NCBI GenBank assembly: GCA_030704615.1
Contig: CM060731.1
Location: 79,918,001 to 79,982,000 of the forward strand
Length of the DNA: 64,000 bases
Reading direction: 5' to 3'
Source: Takakia lepidozioides
Taxonomy: Eukaryota > Plantae > Bryophyta
Every line of letters begins with the position of its first letter. The stretch's first letter is position 1. A model generated the notes under the pieces. It was not told the origin of the DNA, ran no database searches, and worked only from the letters and a program-made list of their open reading frames with translations. This document shows positions 12,401 to 49,319 of this stretch, piece by piece. The position numbers and the translations under genes were made by a program.

Positions 12401-15400
12401 AACTCCGACCCTAGATGTCACCTTAAGAGAGAGACAAGACTGCCAAACTAACCTTGGCAACCGTAAGCCCAATTGGGCACGGGCGATGTGGTGTGCGTGT
12501 AGCAAATACTCCAAGTTTGCCCCCATCCAGCCTTGGCACCCGCACCTAACTACACACAACACAACCCATTTGCAAGAAAGATGAGAAAAAGATTTTTTTG
12601 TCTAGTTGGCTTCAGTTGTCATGGACTAGGTTAGCAAGACTAGGTTAGTGAGTAAGCAAGGCTGGAAATAGAAAGACACATCAGAAGCCGAAGAGACTTA
12701 TCACTAAGCAAGGGAAGGTGAACAGTCAAAATGGCGAAGGCCAAGGGTTAGGCCTTTGGGTAGCCAGTAAGGGAATACCAAAGGTATTCTCAGAGCAAGG
12801 GGGAATCCTTGGGGAGTATTTAGGAGGACCTGATGTTGAGACTCTGGGAAGGAGATACACAGGCCTGTCCTTAATGCGTAAGGATGAGAACATGGCAAGC
12901 ATGGCAAGCATGGCAAGCTATATGACTTGGAGAGTACTCCTTAGCCAGTAGCAAGATGAGGACAAGGTTGGGTGGTTAATTTGCTATACGCTGTTGATGA
13001 AGAGACTAGTTTACTAAAAATAAGACTGGACTGTGACATCAGTGGATAATAATCTTGCTCTTGCTCTTGCTCTCTTATTCTCCCACTTGCATCAACCTCT
13101 TCTTTCTGGTGTGTTTTCAATTCCAGCACATGAATGAACTCTTCCCTGTAGCTGGATTGCTGCTGGCTATCTGCAAGTGCTATGGCAATTCTAGGTCGAT
13201 CCTATGTGCAATGGTTGGCGAAGACCCCCCTCTTGGCTTTGGAGGTTTACTAGAGGTTTAGGATGCGGTGGAGTGTCTAGCCAAGGGTGCTATCTCTCTC
13301 TCTCTCTCTCTCTCAACCTCAAGACAGGACCACCCTGTCAAACAGGCTAAGTCCTGGCAGAAGAGAGTAGAAGAGATCCTCAAGGACCTGGACCTGGATC
13401 CGCAAGTCTTGACCCTGCTGGATAAATCTGACTTAGAGGCTGTAGTGTCCTCAGCCATGTCTGTTGCCATGAGATTGTCTGATGAAAATGAAGTTAGGCA
13501 GAAAACTTCCCTGAACTTGTTTCCAGTCTGTGACATGGGGGAGGACATCTTGGATGACCTCAAGGGTCTACCCACTCTCGGCACTAGACTGAAATTTAAG
13601 CTCAGGGCAGGAAGCCTACCTTTGAACAGCAAACAGAAGCAGAGAGGAAAGGGAGAGTGCAATTGCCCGTTGTGTGGGCAATCTGAAGACAGTATTCATT
13701 TTCTGATACACTGTCCGGGGTTCTCTCACCAAAGAGACGCTCTCTTCAATCTATTAAGGGAATTGTGCCTGTACCCCTGTTTACCAACTTTGAAAGTCTC
13801 GAGGCTGAGCCAAAAGCCCAGGCCCTCCTGAGGCCTAGTTTTTGGGCAAATCACACACAGCAGATTGATGCTTGTGTGAAGGGATTTCTAGAGGATATCT
13901 GGAAAACCCGGATTAATTCTTTATATGGAGGTAAGTCTTACTACCAACGTCAGCCCCTGACAGACGTAGGTTCTGTCCCTTTTGTTCCCGCTCAAACTGG
14001 GCGCGGGGTCAATGGCCACAAGGCTACGGCAAACAACGTCTTATGAGTACAATCTAACCTCAAGGGCCTTCCTACCGTCGGCACATCTGTTCAACCCTCA
14101 AAATCTTGAGGCTGAGCCTAATGCCCCTTGATGGGGTCTAACCGCTGGGCAGATCACACACACCAGATTGATGCTTGTATTAAGGCCTTTCTAGAGGTAA
14201 TCTGGAAAGCTCACACATTGTTTATATCAAAGTAAGTCCCACTACTAGAGAGTGTCTGTTCTGCCCATACTGGGCACGGGGTCTATGGCCAGAAGGCTAC
14301 GGGAAACAACGCTTACGAGTACATTCTCCCTCTTTTCTGCTCCCTCATATTGGACATAAGCTGCGTGCAATCACACAAATGGGGATGTTGTTGCCTGTGA
14401 AAGAGCTTAGGCAATTCCATAATAAGGTCATCACCCATTTATACTGAGGTTTTTAAATAGGGGAGGCACTGGCCACAAGGCTACAGCCTCATTCTAATGA
14501 CCATTACAGCTATACAGCAACCTTCTGATTTTATGGGTACGTTAGCTCAGAGAAGCAATGTTCAGAGCCCAAACCTTATGGCTTTCACATCGAGATAGAA
14601 GTGGGCCTTAACCCTTACGGATACAAGAAATGGGTCAGAAGTATCCAATGTCTGAGATAAAAACCTTAGCTTTGAAATCCTTGTGGGCTGGCTGCTTCCA
14701 AAGACATGGCAGATCTGTGTTTTCATGAAACACGTACAGCAGCCAGCAGTGTGAATATTGTGCCAGCCCGTGGAAGGCCTCTGCAGGCACCCCCTTGCTT
14801 GACAACACTAGGGTTGCTCTTGCTAGAGAAACCAGCATTGGTTGCCGGGGCGTTCCATTCCTGCCATGAACTAGTAACTTCAGGAAATGGAAAACAAGAA
14901 TCAGATAGAGATGGAGGGAATCTTCTGTAAAATGTTATACAGGTAGTGTTTTTGTGTGTATGTGTTTGTGTGTGTGAGAGACAGATGGGGCTGCACCATG
15001 ACTAAACAGAGCTACTAAAATAAGCGAAATGTGACTTTGGGGAAGTCTTTCAACCTAGACAAGCTAAGAACCAAAACTCGCCGTATGATCACCTGGTGGA
15101 AAAGCAAGAACGAACAGTGCCAATGGGTGTCATAGGATAGGCCCCCACGTTCCCTTCCTTCAAGTCCTTGCTGCTCAGCAAAGCTTTTCTCAGCTCCTGC
15201 ATCAAACATACCCAGTATCCACTTATTGGCGACAGTGTTTTAGGACTTAGCAAAAAGAGAGATACATGGCAACTATTCTACTCAATCACAGTGCAACTTA
15301 TTCAGTAGTCGCCGGGGAATTGCAGGATTTCAGAGATTTCTTTCTATAATAATATTTGTGGTTATGTACAATTTAGGTGTCCCAGTGTGTAACATCTTAT

Positions 15401-18297: not shown

Positions 18298-21200
18298 CAT
18301 GTCAAAGCTAGACCAAGGAAAAATCCAAACACAATGTGTTGTGTTTACCTCTTTTCAACTACAGACAGCCTACTTTAGCCAGATCTGCCTCCATACCTCC
18401 CTTTACATATCCTTACTGGAAAACCAGTTTTTAGGTGTTCTTAGTGGCAATCAAATGCACACTAGGTAGGCCCTCTCACAAACGGATCTTTCGCCTCACT
18501 TTCATATTCAAGGAATCAACAATAAAAGTAGGAAGTGCACTAGGGTCTCCTTAAAGGCAACTCCTTTCCATGAAGGTACAAGCTCATAGATCCTTCAACC
18601 CATTCAGAGCAAAACTGCAGGAGTATGTGTACAAAATCAACACGTACAAACAGATTTGATGTTTGAGAGAGCTCAAAGCCTCACTCCCTTAGTCTCTTGC
18701 CCTTAGTGGCATTTCCTACAACAAAAGAAGGTGAAGTGGCCTCACCAGGGTCCATCACAGCCAACCAACAAACCAACAGGGTAGTGATCCCGTTTTTCAA
18801 GTGTTGAAAGAGCCTCTTGCTTGTAGCCGTAGTTCAGTAGTAACTACTGCTTCTTCAGCTCTTGCCTGTTCATCTTCCAAATGAGAAGAGTGGCTGGGCT
18901 TCCTTTTGAGGTAGCTGCTGTAGGTTAAGACCTAGGGAAAACACTAATGAGTCACCCATTTCCCCTTTCTATTCTAGGTGAAATATTCTGAACTGCATAA
19001 TGGGATCAGGCAATTCCTGAGTGCTGTCACAAAGACAACCATTTTGTGAGAGAGAGTGAGAGAGAGAGAGAGTATATGCATTTGTACAATGAAAGTATTC
19101 AATTCTCGAATTTGTGCAGGGCCCCCTAAATTCGTCCGATGTAATTGCACTCCCAGAAAACACCACCAAGAAGAGGCTAGTCTGTGGAATAGACCAGACA
19201 GACCGGGTGGATCCATGGTTGCTGGCGGATAAAGACAGTCGGTTTGCTGAGTTTTATGGTGTGCAAATTCACTATAAAATGGCCCCCCCCTCCCCCCTCT
19301 CAGGTTTTTGCATCCTCCCTACCTGATGCCTCTCCTTTCTGCAATGCTTATGGTTTGCACTCAATTTTCTTCTGTATCTTACACTCATGCACACACACAC
19401 ACACACACACTCACCTACCGCTCGATACATAACAAAAGTGTCTTGAACATGCACGACGTTCATATTTAAATTTTCAATGTCAGTAGTTTTGGAGGGCAAT
19501 GTCTCTGATCCGTATCGTGTTTTATCTAGACACTTGGAAAGCTGTTGCAATTCGTTTATTTGGAGGGTGATCCTCCTTTCTGAAGTTGCATATGTAGCTC
19601 TGGCGCTCTGTAAATGCCATCTGAGACTCGATACAAATGTATCCCTGCAACTTGGGGTCACAAAATCAGTTAAAAGGACATCTATTTACTGCACGTGTCT
19701 GGACTTGGAACCTTATACACAGAAGGGGAGTTTTCGTGGAAATGAGTTGTGTATAATACAGGAAGAGCTTCTTTAAGAATAATTGCAACAGATCCCAGAC
19801 TGGACATAACATCAGCTGGTCATCACTGTGCAGTCTTCCTTGCTGAAGGCAGCCAGGGTCACCTTTGTAAAGATGACACTGTATTAACTGTGACCAATTT
19901 CCTACGAGGGGATTCATGTAACTGGGTTACTGTAGACTAATGTGATTGAATGAAGTGCCCCAGGTACAAGTACTCATCTCCTGGGTTTCACCCATATTTT
20001 TCTGCTGCTACAGATTCACGGGCTCCCATGGTGGAGTCAGGGGGGAGTCAAACACATCATCCTGTGAGACTTCCAGCAATTCTTTTGCACGGGTTTGGGG
20101 CATCCATTTTTTCATGGGAGAGGGTGCTTAAGCCCCTTGCAGCCATCATGGACTCAGTTGTGGTGGCATTTGACAGGCCTGCATTTGGCCTCACATCTCG
20201 CACAAAACACAGAGGTGAAAATGGCAATTTTACTTCCTTTCCTTTCCTCTAATGTGACATTGGTATTGAGGACAGCGAGAGTAAAGCTCAACTCTGCAGA
20301 CGAGAGCTTTCAGAGCTGAGATTGCCACGGTTGCTAGATGCATTCACTCTTCCTGCCTTTCAAGTACACATTAGAGTTGTTTTACAGTCTGCATTGCATT
20401 AGTTGCTGTCAATTTAAGTGTAGTGGATGGATTTTGCAGTGGCACAAAGGGTGGAGGAGGGGGGTCCAACCCCCGACCTCAACCCATTTGGCGTTGAATT
20501 CTCTGCAGCTGCAACGCGGGCGTTTATTGATTTTCTCCATGCCGAGAAAGCTGTTCTCATTGGGTAAGCTCAGGACTGTTCTTTCTTAAATCTTTTCCAG
20601 TTGGATACAACACTGAGTAGAGCAATACATGTAATACTTTTTTTTCTTCTCTCAGACTCTCATCAAACTGTAGGGCAGGCACTCAACAGGCACTCCGCAG
20701 GCTGCATTGTTGCATTGCAGGCGTTTCTAGAGGCGCCTGAGCGTGTGGCCGGCCTGGTGTTGGTGGCTCCTGCACTAGCAGCACCGATTGTAATTGGTGA
20801 AATTCAGGCATCGGCTGAGACGGCTGAGGGTAGGGTCGTGCTCTACAACATTTTTTTCCTTTGTTAGTCTCGATTTGAGTCTTATGTCTCGGCACTAGAC
20901 TGAAATTTAAACTCAGGGCAGGAAGCCTACCTTTGAACAGCAAACAGAAGCAGAGAGGAAAGGGAGAGTGCAATTGCCCGTTGTGTGGGCAATCTGAAGA
21001 CAGTATTCATTTTCTGATACACTGTCCGGGGTTCTCTCACCAAAGAGACGCTCTCTTCAAATCTATTAAGGGAATTGTGCCTGTACCCCTGTTTACCAAC
21101 TTTGAAAGTCTCGAGGCTGAGCCAAAAGCCCAGGCCCTCCTGAGGCCTAGTTTTTGGGCAAATCACACACAGCAGATTGATGCTTGTGTGAAGGGATTTC

Positions 21201-23988
21201 TAGAGGATATCTGGAAAACCCGGATTAATGCTTTATATGGAGGTAAGTCTTACTACCAACGTCAGCCCCTGACAGAGGTAGGTTCTGTCCCTTTTGTTCC
21301 CGCTCAAACTGGGCGCGGGGTCAATGGCCACAAGGCTACGGCAAACAACGTCTTATGAGTACAATCTTATGCTTGTATGAAATGTGGGCGATGGCTACAA
21401 GAGAGAAAAGGGAAAAAAGAGAATGTATTTTGTTGTTTGCCGTAGCCTTGTGGCCATACACGCCATGCCCAGTTTGGGTGGGGGAAAGGGGGAGAGAGAG
21501 GCGAGAGCAGGGCACTAGAATTGACATAAACTCAGATACCGAGTGAGGTTATAAGGATGAGAGAAGTTTGAAAGCAATTTAAAAGCAGTTCTGCTAGCTA
21601 TTTTAAAGGGACTGCAAAGTTTTCTTTTTGGCACCTGGTGACTGAGTTGGGCAGTCAGACGGATGGAACAGATGACGGAAAGCCGAGACCTGCTTGGAGG
21701 GCTGCCTTTGCATGGCTGCGGACTTGCCTTATGTGGGTGTTGGGTCGAATTGCAAAAATGCTACAAATTTTGAAAACTGCTGTTCAGGCATTGTTTGAGG
21801 CAGTTGTTCCAGGAAAAATGATAGCATCTGTGAAAGCCACCGTCCGCGCAGGCTATGAGAGATTGTTGGTGACAAGTCTCCGAACAGTCCTTGCAATTCG
21901 GGCGGTAATCTTTGTTGCTTCTAGATGTGCTTCTGTGTCCCCTACCTGTGGTAACAAAGAGAAAGAAGAAAGAAATAGTTATTTTATGCACAGTAGCTCA
22001 GAGAGAGAATGACATATGACATCTTTTTTCTCGACTTGTAAGTTTATGATCAAGGTTCATGAAGTTATAGCACATTGGGTGGTGATTTGTGGACCAGCGT
22101 AGACAAAGCATGCTCCTAGCCACTAACTTGCAACAAGTGTGCACATTTAACCTTGGTTGAGCTGGCAGTCACAAGTTCTGATGGTAGGCAGGCAGAGAGT
22201 AAGGAAGGAGCTCCACATAGACAGTTTGTCGTAGGCTTGTAGATGGAGCAGAATAGGAAGAGATCATGATGGAGCCTTCTCCAGTGTGGAAAGCTTGCTA
22301 TTGAACTTCAACAGATGGATCTGCTGACTTGGACATGAATCTTTGTCCATCTGTCCTCATTGCCAAGGGTGGGCCTTGCCGTTTATCAATGCATATGTAA
22401 CACACAGACCTAGTTTTACTGAACGAGACTCTTTTTCTTTGTGAGAAAATTCTTTCAGGTACAGATAATTATGGATAACCTCGGGACGCGGGCAGTGCGT
22501 TTGGCATGGTATGATACAAATAAAGCTAACAAGTATGTGATCGATGGCTATACCAAGGTAAAGAAGATTGGCTGATGTTCTTTGTGTTGAGTGTAACTGC
22601 TCCCTTTGAGAGTTGAATGGCCTGACAAATCTGTGTGAAATCCGGCTATGGTGATGAGAATGTCTACAGTCCTTTTTGAGCTTTGCAGCATTGTTTTGCA
22701 TTTGTAATATGTGGGAGCAGCGTGTCTTTGCCAGTACTGTACTGTGCAGCAGTTTGAATTCTCAAGCTGAGAACAAGACTTAAGATGTGATGTTTGTAAG
22801 GTCCTTCTTTTGAGTGATTTATTGTTCTAGCATGCTTTCACAATTCTTAAGAAGAGATGATTGTCTCTCTCTTTTGCCTTCTTCTTTAGCAATGGGACTG
22901 GCAGCACAACCGCAGCTGCCTTATCACTTCTGAGGGGGAAAGCACCAGTGCTGAAATTAACTTAGTACAATTTCAATGTCAGCAAGCACATCAGCTCTCT
23001 CTCTGTAACCAGATTGTCAGCAGATGTCCGCGAGTGCTATGCCGGTTTGGGGTGGTCAATGAGTACATTTCTGTGGGTGTGTCTGTGGCTTTTCATAGCT
23101 GCATGTTTAATATATGAGGTGACGCGGGGCTAAAGTAGTAGTGCTGGACCTGGACATATTTGAGTGCTGGCCAGGCATACACTCCCTCCTCTGTGCCGCT
23201 GTCCCAGATTTGAACCATACTTGTGCCCAGACTAGCTTTGGAACTCAACTCTTGCAAGCTTAATGGGTACTGCTAGTATTCAGAGGGAAATGGTAATGAC
23301 TGCACTTTATTTTTGATACATATTTGGCAGCCGTTGAGGTGCAAGGACTGGGAGAAAGCATTGCTTGAATTTGTGATTGCACTGTTGGTAAGTCCGACAG
23401 CTGGCTTGCAACCGCAACAACCACTGGGCCGACGTCTGAAAGATATCTCTTGCCCAGGTAATGTAGTGGCGAAACTTCAATGTTGTTCCTTAGCCTTGCC
23501 CTTGGACCGGTCATGCCATTGAGGTCCTTTAGTTGATGATAAATAAGGATATGTGAAACTGGTGTCCACATGATGTTGCACTGGCTCCAACCTTCACCTG
23601 AGTGCAATTTGGGAAGCCTTGACAATGAATACTTCTGGAGAATTTGTGAGTGTCTATCACTTGAGTGTCTATCACTCAGTTGATGTACAATGGAGGTGAC
23701 TGCATGAGAGAAGACAAGAGGACCTAATTTGAATGCATGTATTGATGCATGGCAGTGCTGGTGATTACCGGGGATACTGATCGGCTAGTGCCGTCATGGA
23801 ATGCCAAGCGACTCGCAGATGCTTTACCACAGGCGCATTTTGTAAGCATCAAGCAATGTGGGCATTTACCCCATGAGGAGAAGCCGGAGGAGTTTCTCTC
23901 CCTTGTGCAAGATTTTGTTGCACAACTTGATCCAAGAGCCGGAGTTGAGCTTTGCACCAGCATGAATAATGTTTTTGCACAATTCTGA
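17533..23988 (+). CDS. Alpha/beta-fold hydrolase (esterase/lipase-like), multi-exon, probable N-terminal transit peptide
   Basis: Exons: 17533-17793, 19120-19303 (LADKDSRFAEFYGVQIHYK), 20014-~20213 (LLHGFGASIFSW..AFDRPAFGLTSR), ~20440-20563, ~20690-20830 (G-HSAG nucleophile), ~21640-21904, ~22459-22557, ~23331-23457, ~23756-23988 (ITGDTDRLVP; CGHLPHEE). Ser-Asp-His triad motifs are present. Confidence 0.9.
18235..18297. repeat. (GA)n microsatellite
   Basis: Direct reading; abuts a LINE-end copy. Confidence 0.95.
20887..21366 (+). repeat. LINE 3'-end fragment, near-identical to ~13577-14055, in a hydrolase intron
   Basis: Very few differences from the 13.6-14.0 kb copy; same CCHC peptide and tail. 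Confidence 0.85.
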
Positions 23989-36073: not shown

Positions 36074-36628
36074 CTACTCGTCGTTCTCAAACAGCCCTGC
36101 CTCCTCAATCAGCTCCTCGTTCTCGTCAACTAGTATATATGTCCTCATCCTCCAAGAAGTCCTTGAACTTTCCTGCTTCGACTAGCTTACAATCAACACG
36201 GGCATCACTGGGCCAATTTTTGTAAACCATTACCAATTTGTCCAGATTATCCACCCCCAGACGACATCGTCTAAGAGCAGTCAACACACCTGCCACGGAG
36301 AAAATTCTCTCCGTCTCAATCTGAGAACCAGGTATTCCAAGAATTTGACGAGCCAACCACCCAACATTAGGGAACCTTGTCTCATGCTCAAACCCCATTT
36401 CATTGGATCCAGTTTCTCCTCATTGTCAACGGGAAAGCGTCGGAATAAGGAAAGCGTCGGAATAAAGAAAGCTCAGCCTTCAATAAGCACTCACTGGCCT
36501 CCTCAGTGGAGGCAGCCCTACCAAACAATCCATGCGAGGGTAGCTCAGGAGTGGGTGGATGCGGAGCTGTGCCACCTTTAGGGTTCAAGTGCTCAATCAC
36601 AGTGGTCAATAGTGGCAGCAATACAACT
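36074..36628 (-). pseudogene. hAT transposase C-terminal part (dimerisation domain)
   Basis: VLLPLLTTVIEHL...HETRFPNVGWLARQILGIPGSQIETERIFSVAG..RRCRLG..NLDKLV..KNWP; frameshifts and a 17-bp internal duplication. Confidence 0.9.
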
Positions 36629-36942
36629 TGTCAAGTTATTTTACCACTAGTGTGAAACTAGCTAGGAAATAGCTAGCTTTTACATATTGACATTTGGGAT
36701 TGGCCCAAGTGTCAATCCAGGGGTCAAGGCAGATTTAGGCCCTGGAGTGGTTATCTTCACGGCAAGCGCGGGAGGCTCATCTTTCTCGAGTTGAGCCTCA
36801 CCGCGCCTAGCTATGGCGCCGTAGTGTGGATTCCCATGGCGTGGGGTGCACTTGGCTTGACTTGTATTGAGTGATGAGGTTATATATGCATGAGTTTATG
36901 CTTCAGATTGTGAGCTCGTGCTTGTATTCTTCTTCTTTATCA
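36629..36942 (+). repeat. Terminal repeat A1 (314 bp; second copy A2 at 46981-47296)
   Basis: A1 and A2 differ only by four single-base indels in short homopolymer runs; no substitutions seen. Confidence 0.95.
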
Positions 36943-37629
36943 CTCGAGAAAGATCAGCTCGTATCTGTGAGTGCCAGATACGAGTTAGTTGTAGCACTTG
37001 TGGTTTTTGCTTGAGAATGAGAGAAACCAAGTTGTTATGCAAGGAGCACCGTGGAGCTCTTGGTTGTTAGAAGCGGAGGCGATGTGGGTTACGAGGTGGT
37101 AAACCTTGGCATTCGATCTTCAGCTTCAGAGATGAAAGCACCATACTGTAGGTAATTCCAGAGCACCTTGATGGTTTCAGATTGTGTACATGCATGAGCA
37201 AGCACGATTGGGAAGAGGACCAGTCAAGAGCAGGTTATAGTGGCTTTGGTGGCAAAGCTGAGAACTGGACTTGGGAATGCGAGCTGTCATTGTATGAAGG
37301 ATTGCAAGACCAAGCGAAAGGGCTGATTTGGCTTGGGGCAAATCAGTGCACTTTGTGGAGTATGGTGAGATTGGGTTTCAATCTCGAGCTTCAGCATTGA
37401 GAGGGCTCTTGTCATGGCGAGAGCAGGGCTGGAACAGGAGCTAAGAGGTGCGGCAAGGCCATGGAATGTGCACCTAGGGTTTCAGAGCTTGGAAGAAGAG
37501 CTCTTGCACCACAAGAGAAGTGTCTTGTGGCTGGAAATGTAAGCCTTAGGGTTTCAGGAGCTTGGCAAAGGCTATGGAGTGCTTAGTCTTGTCTTAGAGA
37601 GCATCAAGGAGCCAAGGAGCCAAGATAGG

Positions 37630-38030
37630 GGGCTGATATCTCTTGTGTGAAGAGGTTGCATGTGTGGAGCATGTATTCAGCTCATTGAAGCTTCCATCTT
37701 CAAGCTTGGAGGGCAAGCAAGGAAGAGGGAAGGGCTGACTTCCCTTATGTGAGGGCAATGCATGTGTGGAGCATGCTATCAGGCTTGAACTTTTTCAGGT
37801 GTGGGAGTGCAAGAAAGGAAGGAAGGGGCTGGTTTCCCTGTAGGGCATGTGGAGCATGCTTTCAGCCTGCTGAAGCTTGTATTTTCAGGTTTGTGGGTGC
37901 AAGAAATGAAGCAAAGGAGCTGATTCTCTTATGGTGAGAGTGGGGCATGTGTGGAGCATGCCTTCAGCCCATTGAGGCTCTTGTTTTCAAGCTTTAGAGA
38001 GCTAGAACGGAAGGTCTAGGGCTGGTTTCC
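37630..38030 (+). repeat. About 4 degenerate ~95-bp tandem units in the retroelement leader
   Basis: Recurring core GCATGT(GT)GGAGCATG..TCAG at ~37658, 37760, 37845, 37945. Confidence 0.75.
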
Positions 38031-38467
38031 ACTTGGAGTGAAAGAAAAGCACTTGTAGGGCCTATGTGAGTTGGGGTTTCAACTTCAAGCTTGAAGGGAG
38101 CGCAACTCTTGAAGCAACAGGTGTAGGGGCTGGAATAGGCTCTAAGACAGATGCTATGGCCAAGGAGAGTGCTTGAATGAGTGCTCACAAGGGCTGGGAA
38201 CCAGCAGGGCTTGGTTGTTTGCCATTGAGTTTAGTGGCGTGTTTGGGGAGGCTAAGTGAGAAAGAAGGCTTGGTTTGTGGCAACCACCTCATGGCTTAGG
38301 GCTACTATGGTGGTGTGTGGGAGCCGAAAGAGCAAGGATACCTTGCTGATTTCCTCACAGCCACCATAGCTCGGTGGAAAGAAGCCTAGAGTCCAAGAGA
38401 CACAAACCCTAGCTTGGCGTGGCTAAACCCCTTGGAGAAATGGCTAAACTGCCAGAGCGGCCATGTG

Positions 38468-39060
38468 TGGGGCTGTGACAGGCTGTGGCAAGCTGTGACG
38501 GGCTGTGACGGGCTGTGACGGGCTGTGGCAAGCTGTGACAGCTTGTGATGGGCTGTGACAGGCTGTGCCCTGTGGCCTTTGGGGCTGTGACGGGCTGTGT
38601 CAGGCTGTGACAGGCTGTGCCCAGTGGCCTTTGGGGCTGTGACGGGCTGTGCGGGGCTGTGACAGGCTGTGCCCTGAGGCCTGTGGGGCTGTGACGGGCT
38701 GTGACAGGCTGTGCCCATGGCCTTTGGGCTGTGATGGTGTGAGGGGCTGTGACAGGCCGTGGCCTGATGGCCTTTGGGGGCTGTGATGGGCTGTGAGGGG
38801 CTGTGACAGGCCGTGCCATGGCCTTGGGGCTGTGAGGGCTGTGAGGGGCTGTGACAGGCCGTGCTGAGGCCTTTGGGGCTGTGACGGGCTGTGAGGGGCT
38901 GTGACAGGCCGTGCTGAGGCCTTTGAGGCTGTGACGGGCTGTGAGGGGCTGTGACAGGCCGTGCCTGAGGCTTTGGGGCTGTGACGGGCTGTGACCAGTG
39001 AGCTGTGTGGGCCTGTGCTGGTCTGTGGTGGCCCGTGTTGACCTGTGGATGGCCTGTGCT
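38468..39060 (+). repeat. 10-bp minisatellite (GGCTGTGACR) with a higher-order ~45-55 bp period, in the retroelement leader
   Basis: Dozens of GGCTGTGA(C/G)(A/G) units interspersed with GGCCTTTGG. Confidence 0.95.
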
Positions 39061-39260
39061 GACGTGGGACTGGCATGTGGTCTGGAAGGCCGAATTTTGA
39101 AGCTCGTGGAGGGCGGTTTGAGGAGTATCTTCATGATATTCCCATGGTCAAGTTCAGGTGTAGGCTATGTTAGGAACTTAGTATTCCAAACCATAAGCCG
39201 CAACAGGTTCTCTACCCGGTTACCTTGTGGAGAGGGGGTTAGGGACATGTTCATGACCGG

Positions 39261-41204
39261 TTGAGTGTCAACACGGAGGTGCCACTAGTTGCTGGGGACA
39301 GTGCCGGTTCGAGCACTAGCGATACTAGTGGGTACACGAGACGAGGTGTGCGGTTTAGGCCACCTTCACCTCCTGTGTCTTCCACGGAAGGTTCTGATTC
39401 GGATTGTGAATCAGGAGGGCTCATACCGGCGGTGCAAGTTGTTTCTTTGCCATTGTTGTGGGACACAATGGAGGAGATGTATGGAGCTACCAAGGGGCCA
39501 CGAAGGTACTCTGGGGCGGTGGGCACCATTGAGTTGGATGATTTTATCCAAGAGTTTGATAGTTGGTGTGATTGCAGCAAATGCGCAATCCACAACTATT
39601 TACGCCGTTCATGGCATGGAAAGGGCTGTTTCAGCACCTTGAGGGGCCGCCTATGGATGATTACCATGAGTTCAGGCGGGGGCATGAGGTTGAGATCGAG
39701 GAGTGGAGGATGTACTGGTCACCCGACTATGTCTCCATCACTAGGGGCACTAGAGCCACGAGGGCAGTGGCTACACCTGCCGCTGCACCGGCAGCTTCAG
39801 CAAGCAGCAGTGGGACTGGTGGTACAGTAGCTACGACGTCCACCCAAGCCACTACCGCACCAGCACTAGCACCCGTGCCTGCCTTCAACCCTGTTGTGGA
39901 GTTCTTCGAAGAGTTGAGAGGGAACTACCAAGGGGTGAGGACAGAGAAGTTGCGGAGCTTGCAAGAGTTCCAACGGAAGCCGACCGAGAGCTTGAGGGAG
40001 GCTTTCACTCGCATGAGGCGCTTGATAAATGTAACCCAAGGGGTTACGGAAGCTCAGGCAGTCCAATTCTGGTATGGGATATTGGACAAGGAGCTGAGGA
40101 GAAGGGTGCGGGATGCAACTCTCCTACAAGCGGCCCAACCCACCTTAGCAAATGTGTTTTTGCTGGCAGAGCGGATAGAGCTCAACATGGTGGAGGAACG
40201 AGTGGTCATGGTGGATTTGCTAAGGAGACACCACGGGGGTAGTGGTGCTCCTAGCCAACCACTACCTCAACGTGCTCAAGGCAACAAGGGGGCTCAGGTG
40301 AAGCTCAGGGAAGGGCAGAGAGGACCTCAGATGCAGGGGTCTCTCCCTTCATTTGCTGGCCAACAACGGGCGGATGTGGTGTGCTGGACATGTGGAGGAC
40401 CCCATGTCAAGAAGGATTGTCCAGAGGGAGGCAAAGGGCCGGCACATGCACAGCCTGCACAGTTACAGTGTGGGCATTGTGGCAAACACGGGCATGGAGA
40501 GGCCAGTGTTATGGTTTGCATCCTGAGTTGCGCCCAGGCCAGTTCCAAGGGAACAATGGTGGCCGGGGGCGAGGTGGAGCAGCCCAGAGGGACGAGGTGG
40601 CCAGCCACGAGGCCAAGGGCAAGCTCAACGTGGCCAAGGACGCGGAGGTCAGGGTGTTGACCAAGGCATGGCCAACCGGCTTCAGCAGCTAGAGCAGAGG
40701 CTCGCTGCCATGGCTACAGCTCAGGTGGTACCGGCTCTAAGGCCGGATGGTCCACCTCCTGCTCCTGAGGGAGGAGATATGGGAGGCATGGGATTCATGT
40801 GTGGAGCAGCACTACCACTAGTGCAGGTGGAGTCTGCTGCAGCCGTGACTCGAGGAGCAGCACGAGTTCCTGAGCCACGAGGTGCAGAGGTGGAGTTGGA
40901 TCCACAGCGTGGGGAGGCAAGCCGTCAGGCTAGGCTTCCTCAGTCATTCACATTGGCGGAGACAGTGTCGACGCCATCCATGGCACCTAGTTCTCGCCCG
41001 ACTGTTACCGAGGCGGAGGTTACTATGCCATTGGGGAGAGCTACACGGGTAGCACCACTACCTAGTGTTGCCAAGGCTACGGCAGCTAGTGTGCTGCTAG
41101 GAGCGGCCACATCTGTGTGCCAGGCTCCATTGTTCTCGGCTACCATGATTGCGACGCCGGGGGTAAGACCAGCTGAGGTTCAGGCTGGCAGCTACACTCT
41201 GTGA
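39261..41204 (+). CDS. gag: Gag with two zinc knuckles (frameshifted in this sequence)
   Basis: LQEFQRKPTESLREAFTRMRRL..FWYGILDKELRRRV capsid-like region; CWTCGGPHVKKDC; CGHCGKHGHGE.QC (across a frameshift) followed by YGLHPEL. Confidence 0.85.
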
Positions 41205-41238
41205 GAGTGGGGAGGTTACTTCATCTTCTGCGGAGATA

Positions 41239-41810
41239 GTGGGAGGTGTAGTGCCGGAGGGATCCTCGGATTTGAGGGTCAAGACTGCCACGGCGGCGCC
41301 ATGGCAAGCTGCAGCTGCCAGGTTGATGGAGCTGCCAGCTAGGCCAGCCATTGAGCGCGCCATGGTGACACCTGGAGTTGTCATGTTAGACAACCAGGAT
41401 GGCATTTTCTGTTTGAGTGGACCGGCAGGCAAGAGGTACCGGCCACTGCGGGTCTTGGACTCGGGAGCTCAGCCATTGATGCTGGGCAGAGCTGCTATTG
41501 CAGGCTTGGGCCTCACGGAGGCGGATATGGAGCCTTGTCCTTTCCAGATACAGACGTCTCTGGGAGGATCGGAGCAGGCTCGGGGCATGACACGGCGTGA
41601 GTTGGCTATCAGACTACGGCCGGATCACCCTACAGATGGCTCAGTGATGCGAGCCAAGGCCATTGTGACAGACGCAGTCTCATACGATGTCCTGGTTGGT
41701 GGGGCAGTGTTGTACCCCATGGGCTTCACCCTGGATTTTTGGGAGGAGTCAGCTTCCTATAGGCCTGCATGGCAGTCAGGGGAGGGCCGGCGTGTGCAGC
41801 TCCCTGTGAC
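41239..41810 (+). CDS. Retropepsin-type aspartic protease domain
   Basis: VLDSGAQPL catalytic DSG at 41458-41466; downstream YDVLVGG matches the (D)xILG motif. Confidence 0.85.
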
Positions 41811-42169
41811 GTTCATAGGAGGAGTTGCGGTTGCCCAGCGAGGCAAGATGCCGACACTAGCAGCATTCACAGCGGCAGTGAGTTGGCCTAGAGAGTTGCT
41901 TGAGGGCAATGCTCATTCAGAGGATGTACCACCTCCGGGAGAGCAGGATGACATGTATGGTATGGCGGAGTTGCCTACCATGGTTGCTCAGACTCCATTG
42001 TGGGGCACGAGCAAGGATTTGCAGCGGGATGCTGATCGACGGGTGCAACAAGCCTGGGTGGAGGCTTTTGTACCGTCAGGGAGAGGAGGAGAGTGTGGGG
42101 ATTGCACCAGGACCACCTCAATTGTCTCCATTGGACACCACACCTATTGTGTGGCAGTCTCCGGATGAA

Positions 42170-43110
42170 GGCATTTGTCTTCTGGACTTGTTTGGCGGGA
42201 TCAGCACCGGATTGGCTGCTGTGTTACAGGCAGGTGTACGAGTTCGGCGTTACCTGTATGTGGAGAGGGATGAGACTGCACGACGCGTTTCACTTCGCCA
42301 TGTTGCTCAGTTGGTGCAGCGGTACCCTGAGTTGTTGTCGGTGTCTGCAATTCGTGGATATCAGCAGGCCTTGCCAGCAGACATTTCGTTGCTGGGGGCG
42401 CAGGATTTGGAGCGGGTTGGCTCCATTGATCTGGTAGTGGCAGGTTGGCCCTGCCAAGGGCATTCATCAGCCGGGCATGGCAATGGATTGCGAGACTCGA
42501 GGTCGGGTCTGTTTTGGGAGATGGTGCGGGTTTTGCGCCACTTGCAGCTTCATCAAGCTGTATCTCCAGCATACATCTTGGAGAATGTGCCACTGATGGG
42601 CGATTCTCGGGCCAGGGTGATGGCCAGTGTGCATCAAGTCCGGTCGTGGCTTGGGTCAGCAGTGTTGCTAGATGCAGCTACAGTGGGGTCACGGGCTCAT
42701 CGTCCACGGCTATGGTGGACTAACATGATGCCACCCGCACTGCTCAAGCGTGCATTTGATGGGGTGCAGCGGCCAGCACATCTCACAGTGGATAACATTC
42801 TGGACACAGGGAGGCAGTCTCAACGTGTGAGACACGATGACCGTTCGCCTTTGGCAGTGGTCAACAAGGTGGGTCAACCACGAGCAGCATTACCTACACT
42901 GCTCAGCTTCCCAGGATCGCATGCTTTCCGGGATAGTGGACCTGGCCTCCTGTGGGATGCTCAGTTGCAGCAGTTAGTGGAGCCTAATGCTGACGAGCGT
43001 GAGGGCAATGGGTTTTACCACTGGTACCACGGCGGTGTCGTCTCTTTCTGAGGCATCACGTCGTCAAGTGTTGGGGCAAGCAATGGATCTCAATTGCTTG
43101 ACCTGGATTA
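42170..43110 (+). CDS. C5 cytosine DNA methyltransferase domain, DNMT3-like, within pol
   Basis: Motif I LLDLFGGISTG, II YVERD, III ADI, IV LVVAGWPCQGHS (PCQ 42449-42457), V SGLFWEMVRVL, VI YILENV (42581-42589), VIII LDAATVGSRAHRPRLWWTNM, IX EPNADERE.AMGF..GTT, X RRQVLGQAMD. One frameshift near 43000. Confidence 0.95.
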
Positions 43111-43570
43111 TCAGCTTGGCTCTGGCTGAGCAACGCAGAGTGCGGAATACACTTCCCTCAATGGTCTCTCTGCCTACCGAGACGGTACAGGCAGTGAGTG
43201 GGGGCGAGCATGTGAGGACCACGGGGTGCATGCATCCATGGCACACGTGGGAGGTGCTCGAGGTTCAGAGTTGGCAGCCAAGGCGGCTGATGGATGAGGT
43301 TGGGGATTCTTCTCGGGTTGAGGAGGTCCTCAAGGATGAGATGATGGGGCAGGATGAGGCCTTGTCATTGACTGAGCAGGCAGGGAGTACTGCTCAAGAG
43401 GTTGCAGCATAGCAACCACGGGACGCGTCCTCTACCTCTAAGCCCACTGGACTTAAGGTTGTAGTTACGGAGGACAATTGGGAGCCTGACATTGGACCAT
43501 TGTCACCGGAGGAGAGAGACGACGTATACGGCGGTTCCTGAGGGCTTACAGGAATTGCTTTGCCTTCAGT

Positions 43571-44900
43571 TTGAAGGACTTGGGAGCACTGAAGGGTCAA
43601 GAGATCCGTATTGAGTTGGCCACTGACACGCCAATCTTTCGGAGACCCTATAGATACAGTGACATGGAGAGGTCTTTGATTCAGATGAGGACTCAAGATC
43701 TCTGGGAGGCAGGTTTGGTGGAGCTCTCTGGTGGAGAGTATGCTTCAGCCACAGTGATGCCAGCCAAGAAGGATGTCTATGGCAATTGGACGGAGAGACG
43801 TATGTGCGATTACCGGCCTGTAAATCGTCAGACCAAGTCCGATAAGTATGCCATGCCAACACCAGAGGAGATCTTTGATGCCATCGGGCATGCTAAGGCC
43901 TTTAGCACTTTGGATTTACGATCCGGATATCACCAGTTGCCAATCAAGGAGGCGGACAAGCAGAAGACGGCATTCTGGGGGATCAATGAGCACGGCAAGG
44001 ATTGCCTATATCAGTGGCGGTTCTTACCATTTGGGCTTAAGAATGCTCCTGCAGAGTTTCAGAGAGTCATGGATAGGATTCTAGCAGGGGTGGACTTTGC
44101 TCGGTGCTACATAGATGACATCATCATCTTTAGTGTTACGATGGAGGAGCATGAGAGACACCTTCAGGTGGTATTGGAGCGCTTGAGAGCGCACGGATTG
44201 AAGTTGCATCCGGGGAAGTGCAAGTTTTTCCACAACCAGATTGAGTATCTGGGTCATGATATATCCTGGAGGATTGGGGGTACAGCAGACTAAGGTAGAG
44301 GCCATTGCACAAATTCCACGCCCCACGGATGTGAGCGAGTTCGAGCTTTCATGGGGTTGGCAAACTATTATAGACGGTTTGTCAAGGGATTTAGTACCAT
44401 TGCAAAGGCTCTAACCAAGCTGACCAAGGTGGACCAGGAGTGGCAGTGGGAAGATGAGCAGGAACGAGCTTTTCAAGAGCTCAAGGCGAGGTTGACCTCG
44501 GCGCCTATCTTGAGACGACCTATCAGGGGGCGTCCCTTTCAGCTGCATACGGATTGGAGCATGCTGGGGCTTGGAGCGGTGCTCACACAGGTGGATGATG
44601 AGGGAAGAGAGTTCGTAGTGGCTTACGCTAGCCGCTCGAAAACGCTGCAGAGGCTAAGTACAGCTCATATGAGGGAGAGTGCTTAGCTGCAGTGTGGGCC
44701 GTGGCACACTTCAGGTGCTATCTATACGGCAATCTTTTCACCCTTGTCACGGATCACCAGCCACTCAAGTGGTTGATGGAGTCAGACAAGCTTACGGGGA
44801 AGCTTGCACGGTGGGCACTTATACTCCAGGAGTATGACTTTCAGGTTGTGCATCGACCGGGTTTGGTCAATCGGGATGCGGATGGATTGAGTCGCAATCC
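43571..44900 (+). CDS. pol: Reverse transcriptase and RNase H (Gypsy type; frameshifted)
   Basis: DYRPVN, LDLRSGYHQ, LPFGLKNAPAEFQ, YIDD (44108-44119), KLHPGKC, YLGH; LHTDWSMLGLGAVL, VTDHQPL, KLARWALILQEYDF, ADGLSR. Confidence 0.97.
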
Positions 44901-45242
44901 ATGCATGAGCCAGCAGGATGACACTGGAGCTCGGTGGCATGGTGAGACGGACGAGGAGATGGTGCCGGGATGGCACGCATCTGCATTTTTGTGTATTGGC
45001 ATCGGGAGGTCAGATTGGACCTACAACAGGGATGACTGTAGACGGAGTGTCTGAGGACCCTGAGGCTAGTGATGAGCTAGGTGGTGCCAGAGATATACAT
45101 GAGGATTCGGCTGTGTTGGACTACCTCCGCACGGGAGACACGGCAGCCATTGTGACTGCCAGGGAGAGGGATCGGATCCTGCAACGAGCCAAGAGGTTCA
45201 AGTGGGAGGGGATACACCTACTTCGAGTGGGAGGATGGTCGG

Positions 45243-46380
45243 GTGAGGATTGTGCCTCACCCCACACAGCGTGCACGGTTAGTGCGGCATGCCCATGAGG
45301 AGTTGGGGCATTTTGGAGTGCGACGCACTCACAGTTTACTGCAGGGGCAGTATTGGTGGCGTGGTATGCATACAGAGGTGCAACAGTTTGTGGCTAGGTG
45401 CATGGTGTGTGACAGGGTGCGTGCTTCATTCAACGCCCCTACACCACAGTTGCATCCTTTACCTATCATGGGATTGGGCTACAGGTGGAGTCTTGACTTC
45501 GCAGGACCGTTGCCACTGACTATGCGCCACCACAGATATGTGTTGGTGATGGTGGAGCACTTCTCCAAGTGGATTGAGTTGGTTCCATTGCCTGACAAGG
45601 CTAGTGAGGGGGCTGCGTATGCATTCTTGGATCGTGTGCTTAGCCGATTTGGTGCTCCAGCTGAGGTACTCACGGACCAAGGGAGAGAGTTTGGGGGAGT
45701 TTCAGGCTTTGTGTGATAAAGCCTTGATAGACCACCGCACCACTTCTCGGGATCATCCTGAGGCCGATGGCTTAGCAGAGAGAGTTGTTCAGACGGTGAA
45801 GAGGGGTTTGCGCAAGTATGGCTTGCAGAAGGGACACCTAGGAGATTGGGATCTTCAGGTTCCTTGGTTAGCCATGGGCTACAGGTTCAGCAAACAAGCA
45901 TCACTTGCCTCCTTCTCACCATATTTCCTTCTCTTTGGCCGAGAGCCGGATTTGCCTGCAGCCATTCGTAGGGACACTGCTCAAGTCCTTAACCTTGACG
46001 ATCCGGACGTGTGGGTACGTGCATGTGATCAGCGTGCAGAGTGTTTCAAGAAAGTCATGCCCATGGCTTTTGAGAACCTTGCCATTGCACAGCACCGTGA
46101 TACGTTGAGGTATGCACTATACGTGGTGGAGGATATCGTCCTGGGGTTCGGAGGTTTAGCCCTGGTGACTATGTTTATTTGCAGCAGACTGCTCCTACGA
46201 CTCTGGATGTTACTGCAGGGCGTGTTATTCTGAGGGTTCGAGAGGTGTTGCCCTCAGGGGTCCTGATCTTGGAGGGTCGGGATGGCATGACTTGGAAGGA
46301 CCATGTGCGTAATTGTGCGCCATGTCACCTTCCCAATGTCGATGGCAGAGTTGACCCAAACTTGGCAGTGGTACCTGCAG
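45243..46380 (+). CDS. DDE integrase with HHCC zinc finger (frameshifted)
   Basis: HEELGHFG..CMVC; WSLDFAGP; VLTDQGREF; DGLAERVVQTVK; FSPYFLLFGREP. Confidence 0.95.
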
Positions 46381-46388
46381 GTTTGAGG

Positions 46389-46529
46389 TGCTGCTCTGTG
46401 GGTCTGCCAAAGGGGCAGCCACCATGCTGGTGTGTGATCGATGCTCAAGGGGTTGGCATATGGGATGCTTGACACCACCTTGAGAAGGTTCCTGACGGAG
46501 ATTGGTTGTGTCCACACTGCTTGGGATAG
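46389..46529 (+). CDS. PHD finger (C4HC3) at the integrase C-terminus
   Basis: Correcting two frameshifts gives C-x-L-CGSAKGAATMLVCDRCSRGWHMGCLTPP(L)EKVPDGDWLCPHCLG*. Confidence 0.9.
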
Positions 46530-46779
46530 TGGCAGTGGACATGACTGGAGGCAGCTAACAAGACATGGGAGGCCAAGCTCATAGGAGTCAATACATGAGA
46601 TCCCAAGCTCAAGTTCACAGGTTGCAAGACGGCGACTAACGATGGGGCAAACTCTTGCACCCGGCCTCTTGATCTATCGAGTTTGAGTGTAGTAGGGATA
46701 GTGGTGGAGGACTTAGTGAGGCTATGGTCACTATCACATCTTGTGGCTACCTGGACTTAGAGGGACCTAAGCACCAGCT

Positions 46780-46790
46780 AGGGGGGCGAT
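46780..46790 (+). promoter_or_regulatory. Polypurine tract (plus-strand primer)
   Basis: AGGGGGGCGAT immediately precedes TGTGTGG, the start of repeat B1. Confidence 0.7.
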
Positions 46791-47485
46791 TGTGTGGACT
46801 AGTGACTGCCATAGTGGGCAGCGTAGTGGCAGCCTAGTGACTGACTAGTTGTAGCCTAGTGGTTGGACTAGTGGCTGGACTAGTGGTAGACTAGTGGTAT
46901 ACTAGTGTGTGGTGTGCACATGTGTTGTGTGGTTTTGGACAGCGATGTAGTTGTGTAGCGATATGTATGCGCACGACAGCTGTCAAGTTATTTTACACTA
47001 GTGTGAAACTAGCTAGGAAATAGCTAGCTTTTACATATTGACATTTGGGATTGGCCCAAGTGTCAATCCAGGGGTCAAGGCAGATTTAGGCCCTGGAGTG
47101 GTTATCTTCACGGCAAGCGCGGGAGGCTCATCTTTCTCGAGTTGAGCCTCACCGCGCCTAGCTATGGCGCCGTAGTGTGGATTCCCCATGGCGTGGGGTG
47201 CACTTGGCTTGACTTGTATTTGAGTGATGAGGTTATATATGCATGAGTTTATGCTTCAGATTTGTGAGCTCGTGCTTGTATTCTTCTTCTTTATCATTGT
47301 GTGGACTAGTGACTGCCATAGTGGGCAGCGTAGTGGCAGCCTAGTGACTGACTAGTTGTAGCCTAGTGGTTGGACTAGTGGCTGGACTAGTGGTAGACTA
47401 GTGGTATACTAGTGTGTGGTGTGCACATGTGTTGTGTGGTTTTGGACAGCGATGTAGTTGTGTAGCGATATGTATGCGCACGACA
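46791..47485 (+). repeat. 3' repeat block: B1 (46791-46978), GC, A2 (46981-47296), T, B2 (47298-47485)
   Basis: B1 and B2 are identical 188-bp TG...CA units rich in ACTAGTG motifs; A2 copies the 5' end of the element. Confidence 0.95.
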
Positions 47486-49319
47486 AACTGAATCATATTC
47501 TTGCACCAGACGTTCAGCTGACATCCTACCAATGTAATCAGCAATGCACTGTAAGCCTTTGAACCGTGGATCCAACATTAAGGCTAGCATGTTATGTGCC
47601 TTGTTCTCAATGAAATATTCAGCAAATGAAAGAAATGGGTGAAGAACCTCTATGACTTGGAGGGCCATGCGAGCATAAAGCAACTTTATCTCCGCATCAA
47701 AAGATCCATATTGTAAGCGTGGCACATGAGCTGTCATTACTTCCACAATCTTCCTCGTCTCCGTCATGGTAGCCAAGCCAGCTAAGAAGGCATCTGAGAG
47801 CAGCCAGTAACCCCTTCGCTGGTTCAGAATGAGTTGGTGCACTACAGGTGTCAAAGTGTCATCCACGGCTCTGGCTATGGCCCATGTTCGCCCACTGGGA
47901 ACCCTGGTTTGCAAGGCAGCAGATTGCCGTGTGTAACAAATATTGATGGCATTAGCATACGCCAACGTCTCCTGAAACATAATGACTTTCGATGCAAATC
48001 TTGTCTTGACAGGGGTCCTGAGTTTTCTCTTGGGCAAGTCTGCATCCACACAGACCTTCTCCCATTCCAACTTGCCCTTACCACTTTTCTTCGTCCAAGT
48101 GATGGTTTTTTGCAAGGCTGCCTGAGCCTCTTTCAAGCTCACCTCAATCATACCACCACTGACCTTCTCCTCATTTGTTGCGTATTGGCATGCCTTAGAC
48201 ATGGCATGCCCAAAGCAAGACCCTGGATAGGGCTCTGATAGCTTCAAAGGATCACATTTCACCACTGAAGTTAGGGCAGATTGCAAAGTCGCAAGGTTAG
48301 CCCCTTCATCCTTTACATAAGCTATCACCTTGTCTGATAGCTTGAATTGAGCCAGCAGAGCTTTCACTTGGGCTGGAAGAGCAAGTCCAGATGTATCTGG
48401 AGCTTCAAAAATACCAACTGTAATATGGCATGGACACCAAACCTCGTTGATAAAGTTTACCACAAGTGCAAAGGTATCATGCCCTGATCTTGACATCCAC
48501 AAGTCAAAGGAGCAAGACACGGTGGATGCAGAGGCTATGGCAGGTAAAACATATGTGTCCATCGTTTTCTTGAACAAAGTAGGTAGATGGTCTTTCACAA
48601 GCTGTTTTCTGCTAGGGAATACAACCTGACCACACTGACCAAATGATTAATCTGCGGAGCCAGGGATTCTCAACAACTGACAGGGGCATGTACCCTTTAC
48701 AGACCAGAAGCACCAGATCTTCAATGAACCTCAGCTGGGCAGGATTATCTATCTTGTATGGCCTACAACTGCCAAAGAACGAAGTGATAGCACTTGGAGG
48801 CACAGACTGTCGTTTTTTGGGTTTCTGACGTTTATTGCTACCTTGATCTACAACAACTTGCCTATGGGCTTTGTATTTTGCAAGATCAGATCCATGCTCA
48901 TTAGAGACATGTTTCTTCATTGCAGTTATACCATGATCTGGATTGTAGTATACAAAGCCTTTTCTGGTTCTGGTTGAGTTACTAGAGCTGTGAGCATTCT
49001 CCACTGAATGACACATAATGCACCTCATCAATTGTGTCTCATTCATCTCTACCTTAGCACTTGCATCGTTTAGGACAAAAAACGCCCAACACTCAGAACC
49101 TTTATGATATGGGAGCCAAAATCCCTGATTGGTGACCAAAATTTGCAAGCGCTAGCGCCACAGAGCCTCCTCCTCGGCAATTCGGTCCTCTTCCGCCTGA
49201 TCACCAACTTGCAGGACCTCCTCGCTTGTCACGCATGTCTCCAAGTCCTCTACATCCTCCCCAGTAGATAGCAACAATGTTTCAGTCTCACTGATCTCTA
49301 ACGCATTGAAGAAATCCAT
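47486..49319 (-). pseudogene. hAT transposase N-terminal/core part (BED finger and DDE core)
   Basis: ATG at 49319; CWAFF..RCIMCH..AMKKHVSNEH (BED); SFDLWMSRSGHD, YVKDEGANL, CFGHAMSKAC, LMLDPRFK. In-frame TAG near 49152 and a frameshift near 48620. Confidence 0.92.

Follow-up and report, generated by a model that had tools for sequence, protein, structure and literature searches.

Self-priming of reverse transcription is known from the Tf1/sushi group of retrotransposons and has been predicted for Tcn1 and TAR in plants. According to the accessible parts of two reports on Tf1, the transcript's first 11 bases pair with the primer-binding site (PBS) and base 11 is followed by the RNase H cut (PMC7175516), and a third duplex, in which sequence 3′ of the PBS pairs back to the LTR, belongs to the fold called the 'pretzel' (bioRxiv 2022.12.06.519325). 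The portion of Neumann et al. available to us lists self-priming only for Tcn1 and TAR and gives tRNA priming for the non-chromovirus lineages Phygy and Selgy (PMC6317226). In 2018, KnitGypsy-Dnmt3 of Klebsormidium nitens was described as an element that combines gypsy domains with DIRS-like repeats in the order A-coding-B-A-B (de Mendoza et al. 2018, PMC5890265). No mechanism accompanied this description: the accessible parts of the text and of the supplement text hold nothing on priming, target duplication or the origin of the repeats, and the words 'primer' and 'PBS' do not occur in that part of the supplement. A description of priming in this lineage was not found in the literature searched, where the name KnitGypsy turned up in a single paper, with most subscription journals and Repbase Reports lying outside our reach. 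The locus analysed here is of this element type, which, as far as the accessible text of that report goes, is already known, and it apparently brings together a known priming mechanism and a known, little-studied element type, a link that is apparently not yet in print.

The element lies in a stretch of 64,000 nucleotides from Takakia lepidozioides (contig CM060731.1 of assembly GCA_030704615.1, positions 79,918,001 to 79,982,000), which is called the window here and to which all coordinates refer unless a locus is named. Its layout is as follows.

36629..47485, + strand: whole Ty3/gypsy element, 10.9 kb, in the order A1-internal-B1-A2-B2, with termini TGTC...GACA
36625..36628, + strand: left AACT copy of the 4-bp target-site duplication, with the right copy at 47486-47489
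36629..36942, + strand: repeat A1, 314 nt, comprising promoter part, predicted start site, primer and R/U5
46780..46789, + strand: polypurine tract with B1 directly behind it, in the same position in relatives
46790..46978, + strand: repeat B1, 189 nt, identical to B2
46975..46984, + strand: junction of B1 and A2, palindrome GACA-GC-TGTC, made of two element termini and a 2-nt spacer; candidate internal integrase site
46981..47296, + strand: repeat A2, holding primer sequence and hairpin 1 for a second time, with no PBS behind it
47297..47485, + strand: repeat B2, which starts right where A2 ends

Because B1 equals B2 and four single-base indels are the only differences between A1 and A2, the insertion is young. 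The left end (36629/46981) was also found with two other flanks in contigs of public runs. Several indels of the window are missing from most of the public-run contigs that cover those places, which suggests that the frameshifts of the window copy are probably read errors or private to it. The possibility that B is a separate small insertion was ruled out, as a single duplication encloses everything from A1 to B2 and the layout is common to relatives. The element interrupts a hAT-like transposase gene on the minus strand (47486-49151 and 36195-36624), whose frame continues across the insertion. Once the element and one 4-bp copy are discounted, this frame resumes in register at 36624 and is open for 74 codons, compared with 5 and 9 codons in the other frames; a weak match to the hAT dimerisation domain, below cutoff, lies left of the element.

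Some further observations concern the element's family and its surroundings. Runs X6 and X12, the latter perhaps of RNA, contain a joint of 46794 to 47441, seemingly from a subfamily with a much shorter B repeat and the same ends. A contig of run X9 leads from a foreign flank through A1 into the leader and ends at window position 38457 in polylinker-like sequence, as is also the case in X8; judging by its look, we take this to be a cloning-vector polylinker, which would mean that somebody has cloned this piece of the element. Ahead of gag, a G-rich tandem array with a 10-nt unit (38460-39003) occupies part of the long 5′ leader. Elsewhere in the window another dispersed repeat family is found between 10608 and 31396 in both orientations, including a pair that is 99% identical (13576-14047 and 20887-21359).

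The following coding domains were recognized between the repeats.

39572..40660, + strand: gag, with a weak Retrotrans_gag match below the curated cutoff and CCHC-like motifs found by eye
41167..42168, + strand: probable aspartic protease region, with a DSG motif found by eye and no Pfam match
41882..43051, + strand: C5 cytosine DNA methyltransferase domain in pol (PF00145, E 4e-13)
43490..45054, + strand: reverse transcriptase (RT) and RNase H, spread over several frames in the window copy (PF00078, PF17917, PF17919)
45156..46530, + strand: DDE integrase (H2C2, rve) with a C-terminal PHD finger (PHD E 2e-6)

The domain order gag-PR-RT-RH-IN with a DDE integrase is that of gypsy elements, the protease being placed by its motif only, and the fusion of a methyltransferase into pol also occurs in homologues. 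Split repeats are a hint at tyrosine-recombinase elements, a class ruled out here by the DDE integrase and the target duplication; the 10 element frames scanned gave no match to a tyrosine recombinase and matched rve and H2C2 instead. After the integrase, a PHD finger stands where a chromodomain was looked for, and PF00385 was absent among the 120 homologues listed. Among the named matches listed, the closest RT relatives came from the liverworts Calypogeia and Marchantia, followed by Sphagnum, Closterium and Klebsormidium, from which a bryophyte host would be probable. In a quick tree the window RT falls into a clade of 52 rows (SH-aLRT 99) that also contains elements of K. nitens and Closterium, and it groups there with P0059 and P0067 of K. 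nitens, two partial proteins without a methyltransferase match. The one chromodomain element (L040) fell outside this clade in the same tree, which included no Tf1 or Tcn1 reference.

The probable start site of reverse transcription and the sequence it matches are these.

36779..36790, + strand: predicted transcript 5′ end and 12-nt self-primer
36943..36954, + strand: PBS, abutting the end of A1 and complementary to 36779-36790

A first-pass annotation of this DNA had reported that 36942-36954 is the exact reverse complement of 36779-36791. This proved correct, the match extending no further on either side. A match of at least 13 nt was reached by 1 of 10,000 dinucleotide shuffles of repeat A and at none of about 15,750 other 24-nt positions of the window. 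As A36942 is the last base of A1, the PBS proper is 12 nt long (36943-36954) and not 13. The same annotation had stated that a TGG-type tRNA PBS is lacking, and there is indeed no TGG within 20 nt of the A1 end; the DNA analysed yielded a single, doubtful tRNA call. Variants at a frequency of 5% or more were listed in neither 13-mer in three DNA runs, which represent the window's own family, and an Rfam scan of 36600-37200 returned a single match at chance level.

Relatives of the element were drawn from a metagenome scan, the best 80 of 560 RT-bearing stretches being taken as their source, and related loci were located by Blast, for which two A and two B sequences served as queries in addition to those of the window. 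In this best 80 of 560 set, 15 loci have a 5′ copy of A with sequence behind it: three form a near family, with RT 69-76% identical, and 12 a distant family, with RT 38-43% identical. Together with the window this gave 16 copies of A1 plus PBS from three families, which are to be read as three independent primer sequences and not as sixteen, because 12 of the 16 belong to one family. Pairs were counted as the best ungapped match of the 13-nt site, and the PBS was located by motifs that had been picked by eye for each family. A MAFFT alignment of A across families was left out of these counts, as the primer is misplaced in it.

The PBS sequences of the three families are unrelated, and each matches its own repeat A 121-172 nt upstream. 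Within families the PBS matched A at a mean of 11.1 of 13 positions and at 12 or more in 64 of 154 comparisons, while between families the mean was 8.3 and the maximum 10 of 13, with no match of at least 11 in 102 comparisons. In the near family, two positions distinguish L006 (primer taken from its A2 and A1) from L001, and the change is seen in both strands of the duplex. Relatives of the window copy are old and have decayed: of the 16 copies, 13 match their own PBS at only 10-11 of 13 positions, and in L003 of the near family the primer site has been lost by deletion. In L001 the complementarity is 17 nt long and reaches beyond the start predicted from the TATA box. The covariation check that the first-pass annotation had proposed for its idea of self-priming thus spoke in its favour: complementarity is kept with different letters, and since relatives keep the pairing through such changes, self-priming is likely. 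The window's family and the distant family belong to different subclades of the quick RT tree, and self-priming is therefore likely to be old in this gypsy lineage.

Two properties of the related copies may be added. L006 (2936-7400) is internally deleted, with the RT about 500 nt behind A1 and no match to gag, protease or methyltransferase, and retains the PBS and the split repeats. The 3′ part of the primer is palindromic in the window (36785-36790, 6 nt), in the distant family including L026 (8 nt) and in L006 (6 nt), and not palindromic in L001 and L004. Within hairpin 1 of the window this palindrome lies in the loop, and a palindrome in a hairpin loop resembles the dimer-initiation sites of retroviruses.

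A TATA-like box is located 32-35 nt above the matching site in all 12 distant-family copies of the best 80 of 560 set and 29-30 nt above it in two of the three near-family copies, the third (L003) having the site deleted; for the near family, looser TATA patterns were adopted once the sequences had been seen. The promoter of the window gave no TATA-like match with the pattern used, so that the spacing fits in 14 of the 16 copies. A distance of 29-35 nt is the ordinary spacing between TATA box and transcription start. Because the site sits at this distance in relatives, the primer is likely to be the 5′ end of the transcript, and the transcript of the window element likely starts at A36779. None of the reads of the one raw RNA run, X14, could be placed, which counts neither for nor against this start. 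In the two perfect copies (window and L026), the base at which the match stops is an A that follows a pyrimidine, and an A after a pyrimidine corresponds to the initiator-like consensus.

RNA folded from 36779 onwards gave a z score of -6.3, and three structures were predicted around the primer duplex.

36788..36863, + strand: helix beside the primer duplex predicted by folding, 36788-36797 paired with 36854-36863
36869..36945, + strand: long U5 stem-loop ending at the PBS, directly 5′ of it (z -5.4)
36956..36986, + strand: hairpin 2, directly 3′ of the PBS, with its core at 36958-36984 (z -4.2, 1 of 200 shuffles)

In the lowest-energy fold, primer bases 1-9 pair with the PBS with a probability of 0.67-1.0. 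Only 9 of the 12-13 pairs form; the last 3-4 are traded to neighbouring helices, and the full duplex costs 5.3 kcal/mol. The U5 stem-loop had been missed by the first-pass annotation. For hairpin 2, the closing-pair variants G36967A and C36975T occurred at similar depth in two runs, unphased, and a third run had only G36967A. An equivalent of this hairpin is weakly supported in relatives, with z of -2 or lower in four of the 12 distant-family and none of the three near-family copies. In the three-duplex 'pretzel' of Tf1, the sequences on both flanks of the PBS pair with the LTR; the central and the U5 duplexes are predicted for the window element, and the third, from sequence 3′ of the PBS to the LTR, scored no better than shuffles in any of six copies (best 16/300).

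Direct observations are the complementarity and the fact that three families keep it while their letters differ, as well as the RT and RNase H domains and the element boundaries. Tf1-type self-priming, in which the 12 nt behind A1 serve as PBS for the 5′ end of the element's own RNA, is in our view the probable explanation for this complementarity. The transcript would start at A36779, as suggested by the TATA spacing in relatives, and would fold back so that bases 1-12 meet the PBS. By analogy to Tf1, the element's own RNase H would then cut the primer off, and the primer would start minus-strand DNA. According to the predicted fold, the primer duplex would be flanked by the R-side helix, the U5 stem and hairpin 2.

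It is unlikely that the element primes itself from an internal copy of the primer, supplied by a refolded, longer 5′ leader, by A2 or by the second RNA of a dimer. Such a source would be at hand in the second primer copy in A2, the PBS complementarity of L001 and L003 extends up to 5 nt further upstream, and a palindrome is present at the primer 3′ end of the window, of the distant family and of L006. However, the match ends sharply at one base in the window and in L026, it lies at TATA distance in relatives, the copy in A2 is predicted to be occluded, and L001 and L004 are without the palindrome.

The first-pass annotation had proposed a different arrangement, in which the loop of a hairpin offers the primer or releases it by a cut.

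36766..36806, + strand: hairpin 1, 14-bp stem straddling the predicted start, with arms 36766-36779 and 36792-36806; its copy in A2 is at about 47117-47157

Both hairpins described there are real, hairpin 1 having a z score of -5.3 (0 of 200 shuffles), but its loop comprises 12 nt (36780-36791) and not the whole 13-mer, because A36779 is the last base of the stem. For the primer to be offered in this loop, the transcript would have to start upstream and hairpin 1 to form, which we regard as very improbable. The strength of the hairpin and the lack of a clear TATA box in the window promoter would fit such a start. Moreover, the window and the near family have the core GGCTCA/TGAGCC in common, their A repeats otherwise giving a poor alignment, and kissing-loop pairing is outside the model of the folding program. 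The predicted pairing nevertheless points the other way: adding 5 bases upstream reduced primer:PBS pairing in the window from 0.60 to 0.15, and from 7 bases on it was 0.02 or less, so that RNA with hairpin 1 has no predicted pairing with the PBS, and forcing the duplex in its presence costs about 15 kcal/mol. From A-form geometry, a 12-nt loop should be unable to enter into 12 bp of helix as long as the stem stays closed, and the stem already includes the first paired base. L001 lost the duplex only for starts at least 40 nt upstream, and part of the primer in its A2 is drawn into a stem. Three of the four distant-family copies folded kept the duplex at any start (0.50-1.00), L037 dropping to 0-0.6, and no consistent enclosing or blocking hairpin was seen among these four. 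The proposal of a primer offered by a loop, or cleaved out of it, is therefore not supported, and we return to a primer formed by the transcript 5′ end.

With such a primer, hairpin 1 appears in a different light. A start at the first base of the primer would leave the left arm of the hairpin untranscribed at the 5′ end; as hairpin 1 straddles the predicted start, it could arise only where the upstream part of A is transcribed as well, in A2 or in read-through RNA. Hairpin 1 and the helix 36788-36797/36854-36863 exclude each other because both use the right arm of hairpin 1, and the motifs of both are also present in the near family. The near family retains the core arms and in L001 A2 draws the primer into a stem, and three of the four distant-family copies folded keep the duplex, which places hairpin 1 outside the shared mechanism; it looks like an add-on of the window's branch and not part of the core mechanism. 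In A2 all of A would be transcribed, and based on the folding hairpin 1 most likely serves there to mask the second copy of the primer; its left arm may belong to the promoter.

Hardly probable, and the least so of the alternatives, is priming by a host tRNA, tRNA fragment or small RNA, in which case the match to A would be of use only in folding, in packaging or in strand transfer. Primers made of half a tRNA are found among plant copia lineages (PMC6317226, accessible part), but there is no TGG behind A1, the geometry of a site of 11-13 nt abutting the LTR end is that of Tf1, and a fixed host primer would not explain why each of three unrelated PBS sequences corresponds to the repeat A of its own family.

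With the primer site located, the start and the finish of reverse transcription are placed at the joint of A and B and not at the ends of the integrated element. Because the PBS stands behind A and the polypurine tract stands in front of B, standard reverse transcription would yield B-A-internal-B-A, of which the integrated order A-internal-B-A-B would be a circular permutation. The two ends of reverse transcription would be joined, A end to B start, and the DNA would be opened at the palindrome GACA-GC-TGTC between B and A, with two bases lost as in integrase end processing. A 2-nt spacer between B and A was found in all 13 related loci of the best 80 of 560 set that have this junction, and within the distant family the joint of A and B differs by a few bases. 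The spacer itself reads GC, AC, GT or AT in 12 of the 13 loci, a pattern expected from decay of a methylated CHG in the palindrome.

The related 3′ ends fall into several forms. Among 23 distinct ends, 10 are B-A-B and 9 have a single B, two contigs end inside A2, one end is B-A without B2 and one is truncated. The ends with a single B and no A2 (A-internal-B) are those of L003, L012/L013, L019, L020, L027, L032, L037, L043 and L056, and these forms could derive from one-LTR circles or from recombination between B copies. Both ends are available for eight elements, of which four show an exact 4-bp duplication, two show one that is a single transition off and two have none. Single-B forms carry it as well, with exact copies in L003 and L037. 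Canonical B-A-internal-B-A copies, or opening at the other palindrome, were also considered and rejected, as B lies upstream in none of the 15 related A1 copies; this argues against a symmetric 2-LTR circle that is opened freely.

As a tentative scheme, which we hold to be possible and rather doubtful in its full form, this streptophyte gypsy lineage has a replication cycle of its own: the element self-primes on its RNA 5′ end, hides the 3′ primer copy in a hairpin formed at that end only and joins its ends, and the DDE integrase opens an internal palindrome encoded by the template. If this is true, integration would routinely proceed from a circularly permuted intermediate, and the priming sites of the two strands would be uncoupled from the ends used by the integrase. 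The DIRS-like repeats of an element with a DDE integrase thereby become testable, the question being whether the integrase routinely acts on an internal site of a joined intermediate. Since the window's family is young and abundant, such intermediates could be sequenced. The origin of the permuted ends is a more unusual question than the priming.

PAT, TOC1 and Ngaro are tyrosine-recombinase elements with split direct repeats, from which the window element differs by its DDE integrase and its 4-bp duplication. The order A-coding-B-A-B and a B-A junction that rebuilds the joined termini are also found in SymbioDIRS-Dnmt3, as described in the accessible part of PMC5890265. Troyka, considered as a possible split-repeat element, was dismissed: the available text gives normal LTRs, CG termini and 3-bp duplications, in animals only (PMC12440569). 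A precedent for internal opening is provided by the integrase of foamy virus, which cuts the palindromic LTR-LTR junction of 2-LTR circles (PMC1180852, accessible part). In contrast to the window element, whose palindrome is a separate, template-encoded site in the B-A repeat, the foamy virus palindrome is made by the joined ends of reverse transcription.

With Tf1 and Tf2 of Schizosaccharomyces pombe and with the Tf1/sushi group including the plant Tcn1, as far as the accessible descriptions go, the window element shares a PBS that abuts the LTR end and is complementary to an LTR site of 11-13 nt, and also the lack of a tRNA-type start, an RT with RNase H and a U5 stem beside the PBS. Unlike Tf1/sushi elements it has a PHD finger in place of a chromodomain, a methyltransferase in pol and split A-B-A-B repeats. 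Where Tf1 has the third 'pretzel' duplex, the window element has a local hairpin 3′ of the PBS, and its 4-bp duplication and split repeats differ from the 5-bp duplication and two complete LTRs given for Tcn1 in the accessible part of PMC6317226. The element thus works like Tf1 but is not filed under Tf1/sushi, because it lacks the chromodomain and the pretzel and has split repeats and a 4-bp duplication. According to the same part of that source, the TAR lineage of plant Ty1/copia shares predicted self-priming outside Tf1/sushi, so that the mechanism recurs (PMC6317226), although TAR has the copia domain order and normal LTRs. With KnitGypsy-Dnmt3, as far as it is described in the text available to us, the window element has in common the gypsy domain set, the C5 methyltransferase in pol and the A-coding-B-A-B repeats, whereas its closest named relatives among the matches listed are from liverworts and not from algae.
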